From: an uncultured Candidatus Saccharibacteria bacterium
GTDB lineage: Bacteria > Patescibacteriota > Saccharimonadia > Saccharimonadales > Saccharimonadaceae
Reading direction: 5' to 3'
DNA length: 48,033 nucleotides
NCBI GenBank assembly: GCA_937873745.1
Contig: CALMYZ010000047.1
Coordinates: forward strand, 1-48,033
In this document: positions 1,910-44,339 of the stretch, one piece after another
Position numbering within the stretch: position 1 is the first letter of the stretch
How the letters are laid out: each line of letters starts with the position of its first letter
The notes under the pieces: model-generated
What the model saw: the letters and a program-made list of their open reading frames with translations, nothing else
Databases searched by the model: none
What the model was told of the DNA's origin: nothing
Made by a program: the position numbers and the translations under genes

Positions 1910-3283
1910 ATGACAAAAATATCCGACTATTTATCCAAATCGGCTGTCGAAAATATCCAAGCCGCACTAGCTAGAGCCGAAGAGACCTCTGAATATAGCG
2001 CCCTGCTGAGCCTGACAAAGGAGCGCGCTATGGAGCGAGCTTACGCCGTCGATAGTGGCGAAATTACAGGTCGTTTGGCTGGCGTACCATTTGTGGTCAA
2101 AGATAACTTCTTGGCATATGGCGCACCGACCACGGCAGCTAGCAAGTTTTTGCAAGATTTCTATACACCTCTGCAAGCTACAGCTGTTGAGAAACTAGAA
2201 GCCGAAGGCGCGATATGCATCGGCAAGGCAAATCTTGATGCCTTTGCGCACGGTGGTAGTACCGAAAACTCAGCTTTTGGGCCGACCAAAAATGCCCACG
2301 ATAAGTCGCGCGTCGCCGGCGGTAGCTCTGGTGGCTCGGCCGTGGTGACGGCACTCGACGTCGTGCCGTTTGCTCTTGGTACGGATACAGGAGGCTCGAT
2401 TCGTCAGCCAGCTAGTTTTAACGGCGTCTACGGCGTCAAGCCAACTTACGGTACAGTAAGTCGCTTCGGTGTGGTCGCGATGGCTAGTAGCACGGATACT
2501 ATCGGTTGTTTCGCGACTTGTGCTGGGGATGCCGAGCTAGTGATGGATATTATGGCTGGTCGTGATGAGCGCGACGGTACGACGCTACCGGACTTTTTTG
2601 CGCCAGAGACCGTCAAGCCTGGACAGAAGATCGGTCTTATCAAAGAATTTATGTCTGACGATGTCGATCAAGCGGTGCGCCAGCGTACGCTAGAATACGT
2701 CGATAGGTTAAAGGCCGCCGGTCATAGTGTCGAAGAGGTTTCGATGCCGATGGTCAAATACGCTCTGCCGATGTACTATGTCATCGTACCGGCTGAGGTG
2801 AGTAGTAATCTAGCGCGCTATGATGGTGTGCGTTATGGCACCAGAGCTGAGGGCGTCAAATCTCTCGGTGAGCTCTATGGTAAGTCACGCGACAAGGGTT
2901 TTGTAGATGAAAATAAGCTCCGCATCATGGTGGGTAGCTACGTGCTATCTAGCGGCTATTTTGACGCTTACTATCAGCAGGCCCAAAAAGCCCGCACACT
3001 CTTGATAGACGAATATCGGAGACTGTTTGACGAATACGACGTCTTGATCGGGCCGGTCGCACCGACAACGGCCTTTAAGCTGGGCGAAAACACCGATGAC
3101 CCGGTAAAGATGTATCTAGCCGATATCATGACGGTGCCTGCTAGCTTGGCTGGTCTACCATCTATAAGTGTACCGGCTGGTGTTGACGAATCTGGCTTGC
3201 CGATAGGCGTGCAGCTGACTGGCTGGCGCAAGAGTGACGCCAATCTACTGGCTCTAGCAAAGTCTATGGAGGTGACTGAGTAA
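1910..3283 (+). CDS. gatA: Asp-tRNA(Asn)/Glu-tRNA(Gln) amidotransferase subunit A
   Basis: Amidase signature GGSSGGSA...GTDTGGSIRQPA. Length and position between gatC and gatB fit. Confidence 0.95.
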   Translation: MTKISDYLSKSAVENIQAALARAEETSEYSALLSLTKERAMERAYAVDSGEITGRLAGVPFVVKDNFLAYGAPTTAASKFLQDFYTPLQATAVEKLEAEGAICIGKANLDAFAHGGSTENSAFGPTKNAHDKSRVAGGSSGGSAVVTALDVVPFALGTDTGGSIRQPASFNGVYGVKPTYGTVSRFGVVAMASSTDTIGCFATCAGDAELVMDIMAGRDERDGTTLPDFFAPETVKPGQKIGLIKEFMSDDVDQAVRQRTLEYVDRLKAAGHSVEEVSMPMVKYALPMYYVIVPAEVSSNLARYDGVRYGTRAEGVKSLGELYGKSRDKGFVDENKLRIMVGSYVLSSGYFDAYYQQAQKARTLLIDEYRRLFDEYDVLIGPVAPTTAFKLGENTDDPVKMYLADIMTVPASLAGLPSISVPAGVDESGLPIGVQLTGWRKSDANLLALAKSMEVTE

Positions 3284-3702
3284 TGGATTTTAAATTGATA
3301 ATTTTGTTTGCTGTTGTATTGATTTTGGCCGGTGTACTATTTGCGTTTATTACTCTAAAGGGTGGCAAGCGCAAATACCTAAACACCGATAAGTATCGGT
3401 CACAGTGGCTGACTATCGAGCATGGTCTCGACAAGACAAACGAGGCTAGTTTTCAGCTAGCTATATTAAATGCCGATAAGCTACTCGATAAAGCGTTACG
3501 AGAACGTGGCTTTGAAGGTAATACAATGGGTGAGCGTATGAAATCTGCCAAAGGTGAATGGACGAAGATAGATCAAGTCTGGGCTGCTCACAAAATACGC
3601 AATCGTATCGCGCACGAGCCGGAGTTTAAGCTGTCTTACAATTCAACTCGTCGCGCACTGGCGGTGTTCAAGCAGGCTCTAAAAGATACGGGGGCTATCT
3701 AA
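3283..3702 (+). CDS. Small membrane-anchored protein with HEPN/DUF4145-like Rx4H motif, embedded in the gatCAB operon
   Basis: One N-terminal TM helix (aa 5-25) is followed by KGGKRK. The C-terminal helical domain carries KIRNRIAHE (R106-x4-H111). TAATG stop/start overlaps occur at both ends (3281-3285 and 3700-3704). Confidence 0.75.
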   Translation: MDFKLIILFAVVLILAGVLFAFITLKGGKRKYLNTDKYRSQWLTIEHGLDKTNEASFQLAILNADKLLDKALRERGFEGNTMGERMKSAKGEWTKIDQVWAAHKIRNRIAHEPEFKLSYNSTRRALAVFKQALKDTGAI

Positions 3703-5141
3703 TGGTTAGTCAAAGTGTTTTAGATAAATATCAGATGACTATCGGTATAGAATGTCATGTCCAGCTAGCCACCAAGACCAAGTTGTTTAGTGGTGCTGAC
3801 AACGACGCGCGAGACAAGTCACCGAATAGTGTCGTCAGTCCGATTGACTACGGTCTGCCGGGTATGTTGCCAGTGCTCAACTGGCAGGCTGTTGAGCTGG
3901 CTGTTCGTGCTGGCAAGGCACTCAATGCCGAAGTGGCAAAAGTTAGTAGGTTTGATCGCAAGCATTATTTTTATCCAGACCTACCAAAAGGTTATCAGAC
4001 TAGTCAGCTATATGAGCCGATTATCCTGGCCGGCTATGTAGATGTGCCACTCGAAAACGGAACAACCGAACGAGTCCGAATACATCACGCTCATATGGAA
4101 GAAGACGCTGGAAAATTGACTCACTTTGGCGACTATAGTCTGGTAGATCTAAATCGAGCCGGTACACCACTCATAGAGATTGTTTCTGAGCCGGATATTC
4201 ATTCAGCTGAAGCTGCTCGCGCCTTTGCGACCGAGCTTTATAGGCTGATGACATATGCTGGTGTGACGCACGGTGACTTGTACCACGGCAATATGCGTTT
4301 CGATGTCAATATATCGATTGCGCCAGTTGGCTCGACTACACTTGGTAAGCGCACCGAGGTCAAAAACCTCAATAGTTTTCGTAGCGTCGAAAAAGCAGCC
4401 GAGTATGAATTTCGGCGTCAGGTAGAGTTGATAGAAAAAGGCGAAACTATCATCCAAGAGACGCGTGGCTGGCAAGATGACAAACAAATAACGACTAGTC
4501 AGCGCAGCAAAGAAGACGCGCAAGATTATCGCTATATGCCAGATGCCGACATACCGCCAATTGTTCTAACTGAGGCTGAAATTGATAAAATTCAGGCTGA
4601 TGTACCGAAACTGCCATACGAATATCGGGCGGAGTTTGCTGACTTAGATGTCGACAAGTCTGTGCTGGCTGTAGTCTTGGCGAAGCAATCTCTGGCTGAG
4701 ATGGTGTCGGCCGTCTTGGCAGTAGATACTCCGGCCGCTAGGCGTACCGCTAACTGGGTAGCGAGTAATCTCAGTGTCGACGAAGATGCCGATATCAGTC
4801 AAGTGGCTCAGGCCGGTGACTTGGTCGAGCTAGCCGCTATGGCAGAAAGGGGCGAGATATCGTCAAACGCAGCTAGTGAGATATTTAATACCCTGATGAG
4901 TGGTTCGACAGATCCGCGTCAAATCGCCGAGGCTAGTAATCTACTTCAGCTAAGCGACGAGTCGGCCGTGGTGGCGGTTGTCGAGCAGGTCTTGGCCGAT
5001 CCAGCTAGCCAAAAAGCAATCGAAGATATCAAGTCGGGCAATGACAAGGCGATTGGTTATCTAGTTGGCCAAGTCATGAAACTTTCTCAAGGCAAGGCGA
5101 ATCCGTCGATGGCCCAAAAACTAATCAAGGAGCGTATATAG
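3702..5141 (+). CDS. gatB: Asp-tRNA(Asn)/Glu-tRNA(Gln) amidotransferase subunit B
   Basis: Typical GatB N-terminus (YQMTIGIECHVQL, DYGLPGMLPVLN, HMEEDAGK) and a GatB/YqeY C-terminal domain. Confidence 0.95.
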   Translation: MVSQSVLDKYQMTIGIECHVQLATKTKLFSGADNDARDKSPNSVVSPIDYGLPGMLPVLNWQAVELAVRAGKALNAEVAKVSRFDRKHYFYPDLPKGYQTSQLYEPIILAGYVDVPLENGTTERVRIHHAHMEEDAGKLTHFGDYSLVDLNRAGTPLIEIVSEPDIHSAEAARAFATELYRLMTYAGVTHGDLYHGNMRFDVNISIAPVGSTTLGKRTEVKNLNSFRSVEKAAEYEFRRQVELIEKGETIIQETRGWQDDKQITTSQRSKEDAQDYRYMPDADIPPIVLTEAEIDKIQADVPKLPYEYRAEFADLDVDKSVLAVVLAKQSLAEMVSAVLAVDTPAARRTANWVASNLSVDEDADISQVAQAGDLVELAAMAERGEISSNAASEIFNTLMSGSTDPRQIAEASNLLQLSDESAVVAVVEQVLADPASQKAIEDIKSGNDKAIGYLVGQVMKLSQGKANPSMAQKLIKERI

Positions 5142-22546: not shown

Positions 22547-22566
22547 GACAGTTTTCTAACCTAAAA

Positions 22567-22593
22567 CTAGCACTCGCTTGACTAGAGTGCTAG
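22567..22593. promoter_or_regulatory. CIRCE-type inverted repeat (HrcA operator) CTAGCACTC-N9-GAGTGCTAG, doubling as the nusA terminator
   Basis: Matches the CIRCE consensus TTAGCACTC-N9-GAGTGCTAA at 8/9 positions per arm with the canonical 9-nt spacer. The stem extends to 13 bp through flanking A/T runs and is followed by a T5 run. Confidence 0.8.
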
Positions 22594-22606
22594 TTTTTCT
22601 TATACT
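22578..22606 (+). promoter_or_regulatory. clpC promoter TTGACT-N17-TATACT (-35 inside the CIRCE spacer)
   Basis: TTGACT 22578-22583, 17-nt spacer, TATACT 22601-22606. A 60-nt leader with an AAAGGAAGG SD precedes the ATG at 22667. Confidence 0.55.
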
Positions 22607-37632: not shown

Positions 37633-37662
37633 TAAAGTGGGTTCTAGTGTCTGTATGGAGGC

Positions 37663-37707
37663 GCACCAAATTAAAAAACCTCATAACGAGGTTTTTTAAT
37701 TTGGTGC
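37663..37707. terminator. Perfect 20-bp hairpin, bidirectional terminator between rsmD and tRNA-Leu; the right arm includes the tRNA 3' GCACCA
   Basis: Arms 37663-37682 and 37688-37707, 5-nt loop. The core AAAAAACCTC-ATAAC-GAGGTTTTTT has U-tracts in both orientations. Confidence 0.7.
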
Positions 37708-37786
37708 GGATGAAAGGACTTGAACCTTCACGCCCGAAGGCACATGCTCCTAAGGCATGCGTGTCTACCAATTCCACCACATCCGC
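37702..37786 (-). tRNA. tRNA-Leu (anticodon UAG), type II with long variable arm, CCA encoded
   Basis: Reverse complement GCGGATG TG GTG GAATTGGTAGA CAC G CATGC CTTAGGA GCATG TGCCTTCGGGCGT GAAGG TTCAAGT CCTTT CATCCGC ACCA folds as a cloverleaf by hand. Confidence 0.93.
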
Positions 37787-39653: not shown

Positions 39654-39740
39654 GCGGATGTGGCGGAATCGGTAGACGCGCTAGCTTCAGGTGCTAGTGC
39701 CCCTCGGGGCGTGGAGGTTCAAGTCCTCTCATCCGTACCA
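39654..39740 (+). tRNA. tRNA-Leu (anticodon CAG), type II, CCA encoded
   Basis: GCGGATG TG GCG GAATCGGTAGA CGC G CTAGC TTCAGGT GCTAG TGCCCCTCGGGGCGT GGAGG TTCAAGT CCTCT CATCCGT ACCA. The cloverleaf was folded by hand. The top acceptor pair is G1-U72. Confidence 0.9.
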
Positions 39741-39781
39741 AAATAACACAACCTCACTAGATGAGGTTGTGTTATTTTTTT
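39741..39781. terminator. Bidirectional rho-independent terminator (16-bp perfect stem) after tRNA-Leu(CAG) and the convergent FxLYD-like gene
   Basis: AAATAACACAACCTCA (39741-39756) pairs with TGAGGTTGTGTTATTT (39762-39777), followed by a T-run. Confidence 0.75.
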
Positions 39782-39818
39782 AGAAAAGTAGTAGCTACTG
39801 CGGGACTGTGTGTGCGGT

Positions 39819-40268
39819 TTAGAACCCAGTGATTTCTTTAAACCTAACATCCTTGATATCGCTACCGGAGCATGTCGCCTCAAACTTCCATTTACCGTTT
39901 GCGTCTACGGTGTTTGCGTTAGCTAGACAGTCACCAACATTCGCGCCCTCTGCGTCCAGTGCGGAAAAAGTGATCTGAATATACCCATCGATACTCTTAT
40001 CGCTATTGTTTGAAACGTAGCCAACAACCTGGGTCATGTATGGGTTGCTTGTATCTATTGACCAGCCGTCATCTAGTGTTAATCGTGGTTTTTCCTCCGT
40101 CTTCTTAGATTCCTGCTGCGTATCTGCTTTACTATCCGTTGATTTGGTTGTCTCAGTAGCCTGGTTGCTTTCTTGACCTGTGGAGGCGCCAATAATAAGA
40201 ATTACAATGATGGCAACTGCCCACACCAACTTTCTTTTATAAAACGGTTTCTTTACTTTTTCTGACAT
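39819..40268 (-). CDS. Membrane-anchored FxLYD-domain-like protein
   Basis: Basic N-terminus plus a TM helix, a low-complexity Ser/Thr/Glu/Lys linker, and a beta-rich domain (YVSNNSDKSIDGYIQITFSALDAEGANVG...GKWKFEA...FKEITGF) that resembles FxLYD domains. The ATG at 40268 has an AAGGAG SD and is preferred over the GTG at 40274. Confidence 0.55.
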   Translation of the reverse strand: MSEKVKKPFYKRKLVWAVAIIVILIIGASTGQESNQATETTKSTDSKADTQQESKKTEEKPRLTLDDGWSIDTSNPYMTQVVGYVSNNSDKSIDGYIQITFSALDAEGANVGDCLANANTVDANGKWKFEATCSGSDIKDVRFKEITGF

Positions 40269-40312
40269 AACCACTCCTTCGCAGTGTTATTTCTTATACA
40301 TATAGGGTGGCC

Positions 40313-40340
40313 CAATAAAAAGGACGACCCGCAGGTCGTC
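40313..40340 (-). terminator. Intrinsic terminator inside the leader of the FxLYD-like gene
   Basis: Minus-strand GACGACC-UGCG-GGUCGUC followed by CUUUUUAUU. It is located about 45 nt upstream of the start codon. Confidence 0.6.
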
Positions 40341-40440
40341 TAAAACCAGTACCAGCTTACGCCAAATACTTTTACGCGAGTCGCCCATTTGTAGGCGTAA
40401 ACACGCGAATATATATCGCTTGTTGATACTGGTTTTAGAC
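40338..40440 (-). ncRNA. Unclassified structured RNA element (predicted three-way junction), candidate riboswitch/cis-regulatory leader
   Basis: A perfect 14-bp closing helix (40338-40351 with 40427-40440) encloses two hairpins (40357-40400 and 40406-40420). A minus-strand extended -10 TGtTATAAT (TATAAT = revcomp of 40447-40452) lies just upstream. Confidence 0.5.
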
Positions 40441-40487
40441 ATCACTATTATAACACGTGTGAAACTCACCCATGTATAATCACTAAT

Positions 40488-41018
40488 ATGACAAAAGACA
40501 CCCGAAACGTAATCGATAAATATAAGGGCCTACCGACTGACGATATAAAATTCGACCTGGATAAGTCTCGGGTTGACTTGGAGATTGCTATCGAAAACCT
40601 CGAGCGAGATTTCAATATGGGTACGATTGTACGCTCGGCAAACGCCTTCAATGTCGCCAAGATTCATATCATCGGGCGGCGACAGTGGAATAAGCGTGGC
40701 GCTATGATGACGGATAAATATATGAATATAGAATACCACTCGTCGGTGGCGGATTTCGTGGAGCACAGCCGAGGTAAAGCTATCGTAGCGATAGACAATA
40801 TACCCGGCGCAGTCGACTTACACGAAGCCGAGTTGGCTAGCCAAGATATCGTCCTTGTTTTTGGTAGCGAAGCCAGTGGATTGTCGAGCGAGATGTTGGC
40901 AGCTAGTCAGCAGACGATTGCTATCGAGCAATTTGGTAGCACTAGGTCGCTAAATGTCGGCGTAGCGGCTGGTGTAGTCATGTATGAGTGGTTGCGACGC
41001 CACAAATTGACAAAATAA
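40488..41018 (+). CDS. SpoU/TrmH-family RNA methyltransferase (176 aa)
   Basis: GTIVRSANAFNVAKIHIIG, VFGSEASGLSSEML, and IEQFGSTRSLNVGVAAGVVMYEW (the SPOUT knot motifs). Confidence 0.85.
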   Translation: MTKDTRNVIDKYKGLPTDDIKFDLDKSRVDLEIAIENLERDFNMGTIVRSANAFNVAKIHIIGRRQWNKRGAMMTDKYMNIEYHSSVADFVEHSRGKAIVAIDNIPGAVDLHEAELASQDIVLVFGSEASGLSSEMLAASQQTIAIEQFGSTRSLNVGVAAGVVMYEWLRRHKLTK

Positions 41019-44298: not shown

Positions 44299-44325
44299 CT
44301 AGCACTCTATTTACACGAGTGCTAG
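44299..44325. promoter_or_regulatory. Second CIRCE-type inverted repeat CTAGCACTC-N9-GAGTGCTAG, doubling as the tig terminator
   Basis: The arms are identical to the copy at 22567-22593. The 9-nt spacer is TATTTACAC, followed by a T5 run. Confidence 0.8.
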
Positions 44326-44339
44326 TTTTTGTGTATAAT
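44310..44339 (+). promoter_or_regulatory. clpP promoter TTTACA-N18-TATAAT (-35 inside the CIRCE spacer)
   Basis: TTTACA 44310-44315 and TATAAT 44334-44339. The ATG at 44346 lies only 6 nt downstream of the -10 and has no SD. Confidence 0.55.

Follow-up and report, generated by a model that had tools for sequence, protein, structure and literature searches.

The leader element and its parts

The 48,033-nt stretch of DNA analyzed here (referred to as the window; contig CALMYZ010000047.1 of assembly GCA_937873745.1, from an uncultured Candidatus Saccharibacteria bacterium) carries on its minus strand a structured RNA element that lies between a promoter and the gene for a 149-aa membrane-anchored FxLYD-like protein. 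This element is one copy of a large leader-RNA family of Saccharibacteria and their phages. Throughout the family, the loop and 3' arm of an intrinsic terminator together with the next C (T3ext) have, as judged from sequence covariation, two mutually exclusive and evolutionarily maintained partners: the terminator 5' arm (T5) and a segment (Y) within the leader. The parts of the element and of its downstream gene in the window are as follows; MFE denotes the minimum free energy fold.

40455-40447, minus strand: extended -10 promoter, TGtTATAAT (TGTTATAAT), read directly in the sequence
40424-40440, minus strand: 5' strand of the closing helix P1 (GUCUAAAACCAGUAUCA), at the extreme 5' end of the predicted RNA
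40405-40419, minus strand: small hairpin P2, GCGA-UAUAUAU-UCGC (GCGAUAUAUAUUCGC), from the predicted fold
40394-40402, minus strand: 5' strand of helix P3 (GUUUACGCC), partner of 40355-40363 in the MFE fold
40392-40387, minus strand: A-rich flank ACAAAU preceding Y, from the sequence
40375-40386, minus strand: Y with its extension (GGGCGACUCGCG; extension UCGCG at 40379-40375), complementary to the terminator loop, 3' arm and next C
40355-40363, minus strand: 3' strand of P3 (GGCGUAAGC), from the predicted fold, a 9-bp helix
40338-40354, minus strand: 3' strand of P1 (UGGUACUGGUUUUAGAC), partner of 40424-40440
40334-40340, minus strand: T5, the terminator 5' arm GACGACC, from the terminator scan
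40322-40333, minus strand: T3ext, comprising the loop UGCG (40333-40330), the 3' arm GGUCGUC and the next C, with T5 or Y as alternative partners
40317-40321, minus strand: U-tract UUUUU of the intrinsic terminator, from the sequence and the terminator scan
40305-40313, minus strand: Y'-like segment (GGGCCACCC), an imperfect third partner of T3ext just past the U-tract
40275-40280, minus strand: Shine-Dalgarno (SD) sequence AAGGAG of the downstream gene, from the sequence
39819-40268, minus strand: gene for the 149-aa membrane-anchored FxLYD-like protein, from the list of open reading frames (ORFs); its homologs are annotated as "FxLYD domain-containing protein"

In the window, 6 nt separate the -10 box from the sequence GUCUA that begins at 40440. 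Among family members, 82 distinct upstream regions give the promoter consensus TGnTAnAAT, located at -15 to -7 when counted from G1 of GUCUA, and show no clear -35. Since this extended -10 is conserved at a fixed distance, transcription of the leader most likely starts at G40440, placing +1 at the first base of P1. Nucleotides 1-17 of the RNA would then pair with nucleotides 87-103 to form P1, a helix of 17 bp including one U.G pair (40440-40424 with 40354-40338), and the last three nucleotides of this helix, GAC (40340-40338), are also the first three of T5. The terminator scan recognized an intrinsic terminator at 40340-40317, with a 7-bp stem containing 5 GC pairs, a 4-nt loop and the tail CUUUUU; a short RNA ending at the U-tract has a predicted length of ~124 nt. 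The 133-nt stretch folds with an MFE of -57.6 kcal/mol, compared to -32.6 +/- 3.45 kcal/mol for 200 dinucleotide shuffles (z = -7.2), none of which folded as well (0/200). The element occurs once in the window and has no tandem repeats.

Most of these parts had been described in an earlier note on this DNA, and they were found as described: the extended -10 on the minus strand, whose consensus is kept family-wide, both enclosed hairpins, the terminator, which the scan also picked up, the AAGGAG SD sequence and the ATG at 40268. The closing helix, given there as 14 bp, extends to 17 bp. The note had correctly observed that this helix and the terminator share GAC; it overlooked the main conserved feature, which is the 10-14 bp pairing of Y with T3ext.

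A family of leaders in Saccharibacteria

A search pattern derived from the P1 end and the terminator, in which TAGAC, RRCY and GGYYGTCCTTTTT were fixed, was found at no fewer than 120 places in a species-level genome collection (>=120), and ~105 of these show the full architecture. Nearly all of the latter lie in assemblies labelled Saccharibacteria, Saccharimonadales or Patescibacteria. The family counts given below are among the matches listed from this pattern scan, which include 91 unique elements of 107-137 nt. A covariance model (R1) built from 48 representatives less than 88% identical to one another scores the elements at 57-98 bits in the sense orientation and at 28 bits or less in the antisense orientation, and also recovers divergent copies beyond the reach of the search pattern. 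The order of promoter, structured leader, terminator, SD sequence and ORF noted earlier for the window is conserved across the family copies. Covariation in relatives, which the earlier note proposed to look for, is evident: the helices covary, and more than 90 distinct sequences preserve the element through compensatory changes, so that a chance hairpin can be dismissed.

Several genomes carry two or three copies. Carriers of the family include cultured or complete genomes, namely those of Nanosynbacter TM7-076 and TM7-087, of HOT-352 and of "Ca. Minimicrobia vallesae" IHU2. Second, divergent copies within the same genomes were observed at L056 5449-5586, L143 29-146 (minus), L077 4528-4624 (minus) and L145 2802-2938. 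These second copies have other P1 bases (GUCCA, AUCCC, ACCCA), and their Y and T3ext would not cross-pair with those of the first copy, which suggests orthogonal sequence variants in one cell. A few full-scoring elements were also seen on contigs of metagenome-assembled genomes labelled Chloroflexi, Acidobacteriota, Oscillospiraceae, Verrucomicrobiia or Berkelbacteria (L034, L041, L057, L110, L130 and L132); these could be due to binning contamination by Saccharibacteria contigs or to a wider distribution.

The orientation of the covariance-model scores bears on whether the conserved object is an RNA. The locus could instead be a DNA-level inverted repeat (a miniature inverted-repeat transposable element, an attC-like site or a protein-binding site) or part of a 60-aa ORF at 40287-40469, as a long perfect inverted repeat is present, the cassette is mobile between genomic sites, and a GRCARCC-like sequence occurs three times in direct orientation. 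The strong strand asymmetry of the scores (57-98 versus <=28 bits) argues against this, as do the abundant G.U pairs, for which the opposite strand would have A-C mismatches, the fixed register and orientation of the element to the promoter, the U-tract and the SD sequence and ORF, and the lack of any repetition of the element within the window. Evidence that the 60-aa ORF is conserved as a protein had been named in the earlier note as a point that would speak against an RNA; the ORF is not so conserved, and a coding role was rejected, with the frame open in 11 of 48 representatives, 32 stopped in all three frames, and lengths distributed evenly modulo 3. We consider a non-RNA explanation to be close to negligible. 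Two further candidates were discarded: a repeated or mobile DNA element within the window, of which no second copy exists there, and a type III toxin-antitoxin system of the ToxIN kind, given a single copy without tandem repeats and diverse membrane proteins encoded downstream.

Two maintained partners for the terminator 3' arm

P1 is 15-21 bp long family-wide and freely variable in sequence. In 96 distinct sequences its 15 modelled base pairs are 95-99.9% paired and 11 of the 15 pairs show changes on both sides; G.U pairs are frequent, with U.G in 50 of the 96 sequences at one P1 position. The interior of the element is far less constant. The P2 region ranges from 0 to ~40 nt and is missing in several subfamilies, and other subfamilies have at the position of P3 different yet complementary sequences predicted to form a helix (AUUCACACG/CGUGUGAAU, GUUGUACC/GGGUACAA). 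The smallest members consist of a single long stem with Y in its apical loop. The three-way junction proposed in the earlier note is predicted for the window, but is not a conserved trait, the first inner hairpin being a variable insertion that many members lack. Invariance is confined to G1-A5, AAU-GGGC and the bases of the terminator, nearly all of which are helical; the junctions, P2 and P3 are variable or absent.

Y has the form AAU-GGGC-RR-YY followed by 2-6 further bases, with A-rich flanks. In the window, GGGCGACUCGCG pairs with UGCGGGUCGUCC over 12 contiguous bp (40375-40386 with 40322-40333), and a contiguous Y:T3ext helix of 10-14 bp (mode 12) is present in 89 of the 91 unique sequences. 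When an alignment that had not been fitted to the helix is used, pairing holds in 98.9% of cells and both sides change in 7 of the 12 pairs, values reached by 0/500 shuffles, a control that ignores the relatedness of the sequences. Four of the Y pairs involve bases of the terminator loop, which have no role in the terminator hairpin; these pairs are 96.6% paired, where shuffles give 55.9% and sliding the partner gives 29-60%, and the loop positions concerned show up to six pair types each. The terminator stem T5:T3, for its part, is 99.7% paired with both-sided changes in 3 of 7 pairs. In alignment A3, columns 154-160 are used by both T5:T3 and Y:T3ext, and each helix includes pairs altered on both sides; because the two helices share one segment and both covary, we take T3ext to have two exclusive partners maintained in evolution.

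The first 3-4 bases of T5 always come from the P1 base, including in divergent copies (GUCCA/UGGAC, AUCCC/GGGAU). Copies whose sequence was not forced by the search pattern retain P1, a Y:T3ext helix of 11-14 bp, the U-tract, and the overlap of the P1 base with T5. A possible third partner of T3ext, Y', a further copy of the Y/T5-like sequence, is located 2-10 nt past the U-tract in about half of the subfamilies (e.g., L030, L055, L071, L052, L028 and L136). Its pairing with T3ext would leave the U-tract as a loop, and reaches 9-11 bp in some subfamilies; the overall statistic is weak, with a mean best helix of 6.4 compared to 5.8-5.9 in controls.

A proposed switch and its polarity

The energies of the competing folds constrain how the two partners could alternate. 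The nested MFE fold, with P1, the terminator and local hairpins, has a mean of -50.2 kcal/mol. Forcing Y:T3ext into a nested fold, which breaks P1, yields a mean of -36.9 kcal/mol, while keeping P1 and adding the Y:T3ext duplex yields -58.0 kcal/mol before any pseudoknot penalty. A classical nested antiterminator with P1 broken was rejected on energy, its value being less favorable by a mean of 13.4 kcal/mol than that of P1 plus terminator; since nested Y:T3ext is unfavorable, the alternative state must keep P1 and form a pseudoknot. Once several kcal/mol are deducted for the pseudoknot, and possibly also the cost of melting P3, the terminator and Y:T3ext states are predicted to be roughly isoenergetic, and near-equal energies are, in such a model, what a switch needs.

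On balance, we find it somewhat probable that the family is a self-contained, bistable cis-acting transcription attenuator. Transcription would start at G40440, P1 would close, and the apical part would display Y, with the terminator following directly after P1. In one state, T3ext would pair with T5, opening the last 3 bp of P1 and forming the 7-bp hairpin with its U-tract, so that RNA polymerase stops and releases an RNA of ~124 nt. In the other state, T3ext would pair with Y over 12 bp, the base of P1 would stay closed, no terminator hairpin would form, and polymerase would read through into the downstream gene. What the sequences show are the parts, their conservation and covariation, the leader context and the spread of the family; the polarity, with Y pairing as read-through and T5 pairing as termination, we infer.

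Several observations weigh against the attenuator model. The invariance of TAGAC, RRCY and GGYYGTCCTTTTT is partly imposed by the search pattern, a bias that the loop-extension pairs and the pattern-unforced variants escape, and the significance taken from the shuffle controls is inflated by the shared ancestry of the sequences. In minimal variants, a near-continuous stem of 17-20 bp carries Y at its tip, and no more than 5-6 nt link P1 to T3ext; in the window, P3 and P1 are connected by a single nucleotide. On such a geometry, a cis pseudoknot that leaves all stems intact is doubtful, and P3 would have to melt or bend. Before T3ext exists, much of Y is in a predicted local GG-GCRR-CC mini-hairpin, and in the predicted ensemble its unpaired probability is 0.10-0.17 for the first two G's and ~0.25 for the extension. 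Both alternative helices end beside the U-tract, and Y is preceded by an A-rich tract like the 5' arm of a strong terminator. Finally, in divergent copies T5:T3 shrinks to 4-6 bp while Y:T3ext stays at 11-12 bp, so that Y:T3ext might be the terminating helix. A universal local helix masking the Y extension was also considered and rejected, as it is found only in subfamilies with the extension AUU or GUUA.

A rival reading takes the opposite polarity, in which Y:T3ext with the A-tract facing the U-tract would be the terminator and T5 would act as antiterminator by forming a short, poorly terminating hairpin. An AA(U), often with 4-6 A's, is conserved before Y and faces the U-tract, Y:T3ext ends one base nearer to the U-tract than T5:T3, and divergent copies hold Y:T3ext and the U-tract as T5:T3 weakens. 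Yarnell and Roberts reportedly found in 1999 that release can be triggered by oligonucleotides that pair in trans with the 3' arm preceding a U-tract. However, the GC-rich hairpin of 7 bp, with C and U5-8 after it, has the textbook form of an intrinsic terminator, which is local and would form faster than a long-range helix, and Y is partly sequestered and far away as T3 emerges. We regard this reversed arrangement as distinctly unlikely.

Downstream genes and genomic context

An ORF in the same orientation and with its own SD sequence starts 15-75 nt past the U-tract in 111 of 121 copies, a spacing that leaves no room for a separate downstream promoter; in the window, a scan found no promoter-like site between the terminator and the ATG. 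The 149-aa FxLYD-like protein is presumably expressed only by read-through of the leader terminator. The 96 distinct proteins encoded downstream fall into 31 unrelated clusters, mostly small membrane proteins. The largest cluster contains FxLYD/DUF4352-like and DUF4190 proteins, and others contain DUF805, bPH_2 (bacterial PH), SHOCT/DUF4429, pilin-like, DUF2726 and methyltransferase proteins; the remainder includes a 56-aa protein with a predicted single transmembrane segment, an 80-aa Cys-rich protein and many orphans. In one such case (L081), the element precedes a pilin-like gene with an N-terminal methylation motif, and a ribosomal protein L10 leader at 2860-3001 (minus; RF00557, 57.9 bits) lies ~330 nt from the element.

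Homologs of the FxLYD protein (P0176, P0200-P0206) were also observed in Actinobacteria (Leucobacter, Aestuariimicrobium), with 45-65% identity over the aligned part. Actinobacteria are the hosts of oral Saccharibacteria, and the similarity may reflect gene exchange between host and epibiont. The leader is absent upstream of the Leucobacter homolog (L153), the sole actinobacterial copy examined. The earlier note had assigned the element to the FxLYD gene in particular; with at least 31 unrelated gene families downstream and an FxLYD homolog in Leucobacter that lacks the element, a leader specific to FxLYD genes was rejected.

With 31 unrelated clusters and a phage DNA methylase, the downstream genes have no common pathway or ligand, which bears on whether the leader could be a classical metabolite or ion riboswitch, with an aptamer made of P1, P3 and Y and a ligand that stabilizes the pseudoknot. 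The layout of a structured leader followed by a terminator would suit such a device, as would the multiple copies per genome in front of varied membrane and surface proteins, a pattern of second-messenger riboswitches. The A-rich flanks and an invariant G.U in Y:T3 (94/96 sequences) could form a pocket, and with near-isoenergetic states a small binding energy could tip the balance. Against this, nearly all conserved bases apart from AAU are in the competing helices, with free variation in the sequence, length and occurrence of the junctions, P2 and P3; with 15-21 bp, P1 far exceeds the known ligand-gated P1 helices; and phage morons and a DNA methylase are among the downstream genes that share no pathway. 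A riboswitch in this strict sense seems quite improbable. The suggestion in the earlier note of a transcription-attenuating riboswitch or protein-binding leader accordingly stands as far as an attenuator-like leader is concerned, and a metabolite riboswitch is the part made unlikely by the variable scaffold, the placement of the conserved bases mostly in competing helices and the lack of a common pathway. The variable scaffold and unrelated downstream genes argue against a specific metabolite and favor a general trans-acting factor, either a protein or the released leader RNA itself (as with P4 CI RNA or IsrK), as the more plausible input to the proposed attenuator.

The genes flanking the cassette in the window (SpoU/TrmH methylase, HisRS, trigger factor and FAD oxidase) have their closest homologs in Saccharibacteria (TM7). 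The cassette itself is delimited by comparison to the closest relative:

39743-40487: whole cassette of 745 bp (FxLYD gene, leader and promoter), strain-specific relative to the closest relative

The breakpoints of the cassette are at the end of tRNA-Leu(CAG) (39742) and at the SpoU/TrmH ATG (40488). In the nearest relative (L001 1437-3000) the flanks are 97% identical at the nucleotide level, and a 1564-bp segment with TauE and NUDIX genes stands in place of the cassette; because another segment takes up the same site there, the FxLYD gene and its leader appear from this comparison to be an accessory cassette. Synteny with the SpoU/TrmH neighbor was rejected, as the closest relatives do not have the cassette. 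Homologs of the FxLYD protein occur in differing neighborhoods (including HIT/transposase, OmdA/FecR, NrdR/ThrRS, NT5C/LepA, M20/NUDIX and L19/RNase HII), and each of these loci carries the element directly upstream, with compensatory differences. More generally, chromosomal cassettes are found at variable sites, frequently close to tRNA genes, and differ between closely related strains. Because Y competes for one arm of the terminator, the leader probably decides whether the accessory genes are read.

The element is also present in genuine phage or prophage DNA (L149 and L145). At L149 7529-7980 (+), within a siphovirus-like module, it precedes a 114-aa ORF on the opposite strand and lies between the major tail and tape-measure genes. 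At L145, two copies (2151-2266 and 2802-4056, +) are found beside a serine recombinase; of these, one stands before the gene for a membrane protein of 56 aa, and the other before that for an N6/N4 DNA methylase containing a RAMA domain. All of these sites are of the moron or lysogeny-module kind, in keeping with how the chromosomal cassettes behave.

Relationship to known RNA systems

At gathering score, Rfam 15 models, among them C4 (RF01695), T-box and the known riboswitch classes, detected only two tRNAs in the window. A permissive scan of 40200-40560 gave as its best match leu-phe_leader, at 25 bits compared to a gathering score of 70, which is noise, and scans of 20 other members (18 loci, and two members scanned permissively) returned no match on the element (tRNAs, one L10 leader elsewhere, and noise). 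The statement in the earlier note that no known riboswitch could be matched is borne out by these covariance-model scans. Full-text searches of the literature on structured RNAs of Saccharibacteria, TM7 and Patescibacteria found no description of the motif, the matches to sequence strings being unrelated primers, and full-text searches on Saccharibacteria gene regulation found nothing. Within the searchable literature and Rfam 15, the family, a proposed leader attenuator with alternative pairing, is apparently undescribed. Its unusual traits are a long P1 starting at +1, a contested terminator 3' arm and loop, use by phages, and a mobile, heterogeneous regulon.

The general layout resembles that of known riboswitch and attenuator platforms such as the pbuE adenine ON-switch and the fluoride, preQ1-I and ZTP pseudoknot switches. 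These likewise are 5' leaders in which a terminator strand has an alternative partner, the P1 3' strand overlaps the terminator 5' arm, and a pairing of loop to 3' tail decides the outcome, as we infer here. In contrast to them, the element has no evident conserved ligand pocket and matches no Rfam model. Its P1, of 15-21 bp, begins at +1, the competition is over the terminator 3' arm and loop, and the genes downstream have unrelated functions.

The literature searches brought up one published TM7-specific candidate cis-regulatory RNA, the lysM-TM7 motif (Weinberg et al. 2017, PMC5737381). It shares with the element the phylum and the position in a 5' untranslated region, and is set apart, by its description, through its association with lysM genes. 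A cmscan with all Rfam 15 models (the presence of the lysM-TM7 model among them being unconfirmed) left the window element and 18 loci unmatched at E <= 10.

Phage morons, the promoter-gene-terminator units located between phage genes, offer a parallel on the side of genome organization. The L149 unit lies between tail genes and that of L145 beside an integrase, and the chromosomal copies are, as morons are, single-gene cassettes at variable, strain-polymorphic sites. The moron terminator follows the gene, whereas here the structured RNA and terminator sit between promoter and gene.

By analogy, the closest precedents are the leader RNAs P4 CI and IsrK. P4 CI RNA, a product cut from the leader of its target operon, causes premature termination by pairing with the nascent transcript at seqA and seqC, and IsrK of Gifsy-1 ends at its own terminator and acts in trans on the read-through form (PMC4825925). 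Like the C4 antisense RNAs (RF01695; P4 CI, P1/P7 c4 and Salmonella Gifsy-1 IsrK), the element occurs in a phage or prophage setting, and it is predicted to give a similar stable small RNA from the leader of the controlled operon. Its loop is complementary to sites elsewhere in the same transcript (Y to T3ext, and partly Y'), and the outcomes, premature termination control in P4 and activation of the read-through mRNA for IsrK, may be likened to those proposed here. Unlike the C4 RNAs, the element has no sequence or structure match to C4 models, its 3' end is predicted to come from an intrinsic terminator rather than from processing by RNase P and PNPase, its target is inside the terminator, and its host lineage is Saccharibacteria.

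These precedents raise the possibility that the family is a dual-function leader small RNA of the P4 CI/P1 c4/IsrK type. The predicted ~124-nt RNA released by termination would be very stable, with its 5' end locked in P1 and its 3' end by Y:T3ext and A:U pairs. Through its Y loop it would act in trans on T3ext in transcripts of its own locus, whether nascent or read-through, and the outcome would be either enforced termination, as an immunity-like negative feedback, or activation of the read-through mRNA. The element does stand in real prophage or phage DNA at moron or lysogeny-module positions and has its own promoter and terminator. As is seen in antisense RNAs, a long rigid stem presents Y in its A-rich apical loop, and the cis pseudoknot is sterically doubtful in the minimal variants. 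The up to three T3ext partners (Y, T5 and Y') parallel P4 seqA, seqB and seqC (PMC4825925). Copies in the same genome often have Y and T3ext that do not cross-pair, which matters only if the RNAs meet in trans. On the other side, no member matches the Rfam C4 family, some genomes carry copies with identical Y and T3ext (e.g., L028 and L054), and Y' is absent or weak in roughly half of the subfamilies with a statistic barely above controls. The proposal is compatible with the cis attenuator and not exclusive of it; taken as a whole, we judge a trans-acting role to be unlikely.

Saccharibacteria (TM7, of the Patescibacteria or candidate phyla radiation, CPR) are ultrasmall obligate epibionts that are assumed to encode few protein regulators. 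A tentative and rather speculative extension, which we hold to be unlikely, is that Saccharibacteria and their phages use an RNA-only module, in which a cis bistable terminator switch is combined with a released, locus-specific trans "immunity-like" RNA, and that this module gates a mobile regulon. The 4-6 nt extension, by its pairing with the terminator loop, would provide the specificity. If true, the regulon would consist of morons and accessory surface and membrane proteins, and may serve host contact or phage exclusion.

The family makes gene regulation in Saccharibacteria directly testable, with a defined promoter, a predicted +1 and dozens of natural variants, and links it to prophage morons and to strain-variable membrane-protein cassettes. 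The proposed switch is compact, with two states separable by mutating four bases, and its carriage by cultured or complete genomes makes experiments feasible. The element could also be a native expression-control part for new Saccharibacteria genetic systems.

Other features of the window

Two tRNA-Leu genes, 37702-37786 (minus, TAG) and 39654-39740 (plus, CAG), are inverted around the FAD-linked oxidase gene. At other loci, too, tRNA genes are often within 1-2 kb of the element, and this proximity may mark integration hot spots. The 3' end of tRNA-Leu(TAG) is overlapped by a perfect 21-bp inverted repeat at 37662-37708 (CGCACCAAATTAAAAAACCTC / GAGGTTTTTTAATTTGGTGCG) with a 5-nt spacer and A/T runs on both sides, which resembles a bidirectional terminator. 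Similar terminator-like hairpins (CTAGCACTC...GAGTGCTAGTTTTT), 80-84% alike, are located at 22554-22598 and 44299-44338, downstream of unrelated genes.

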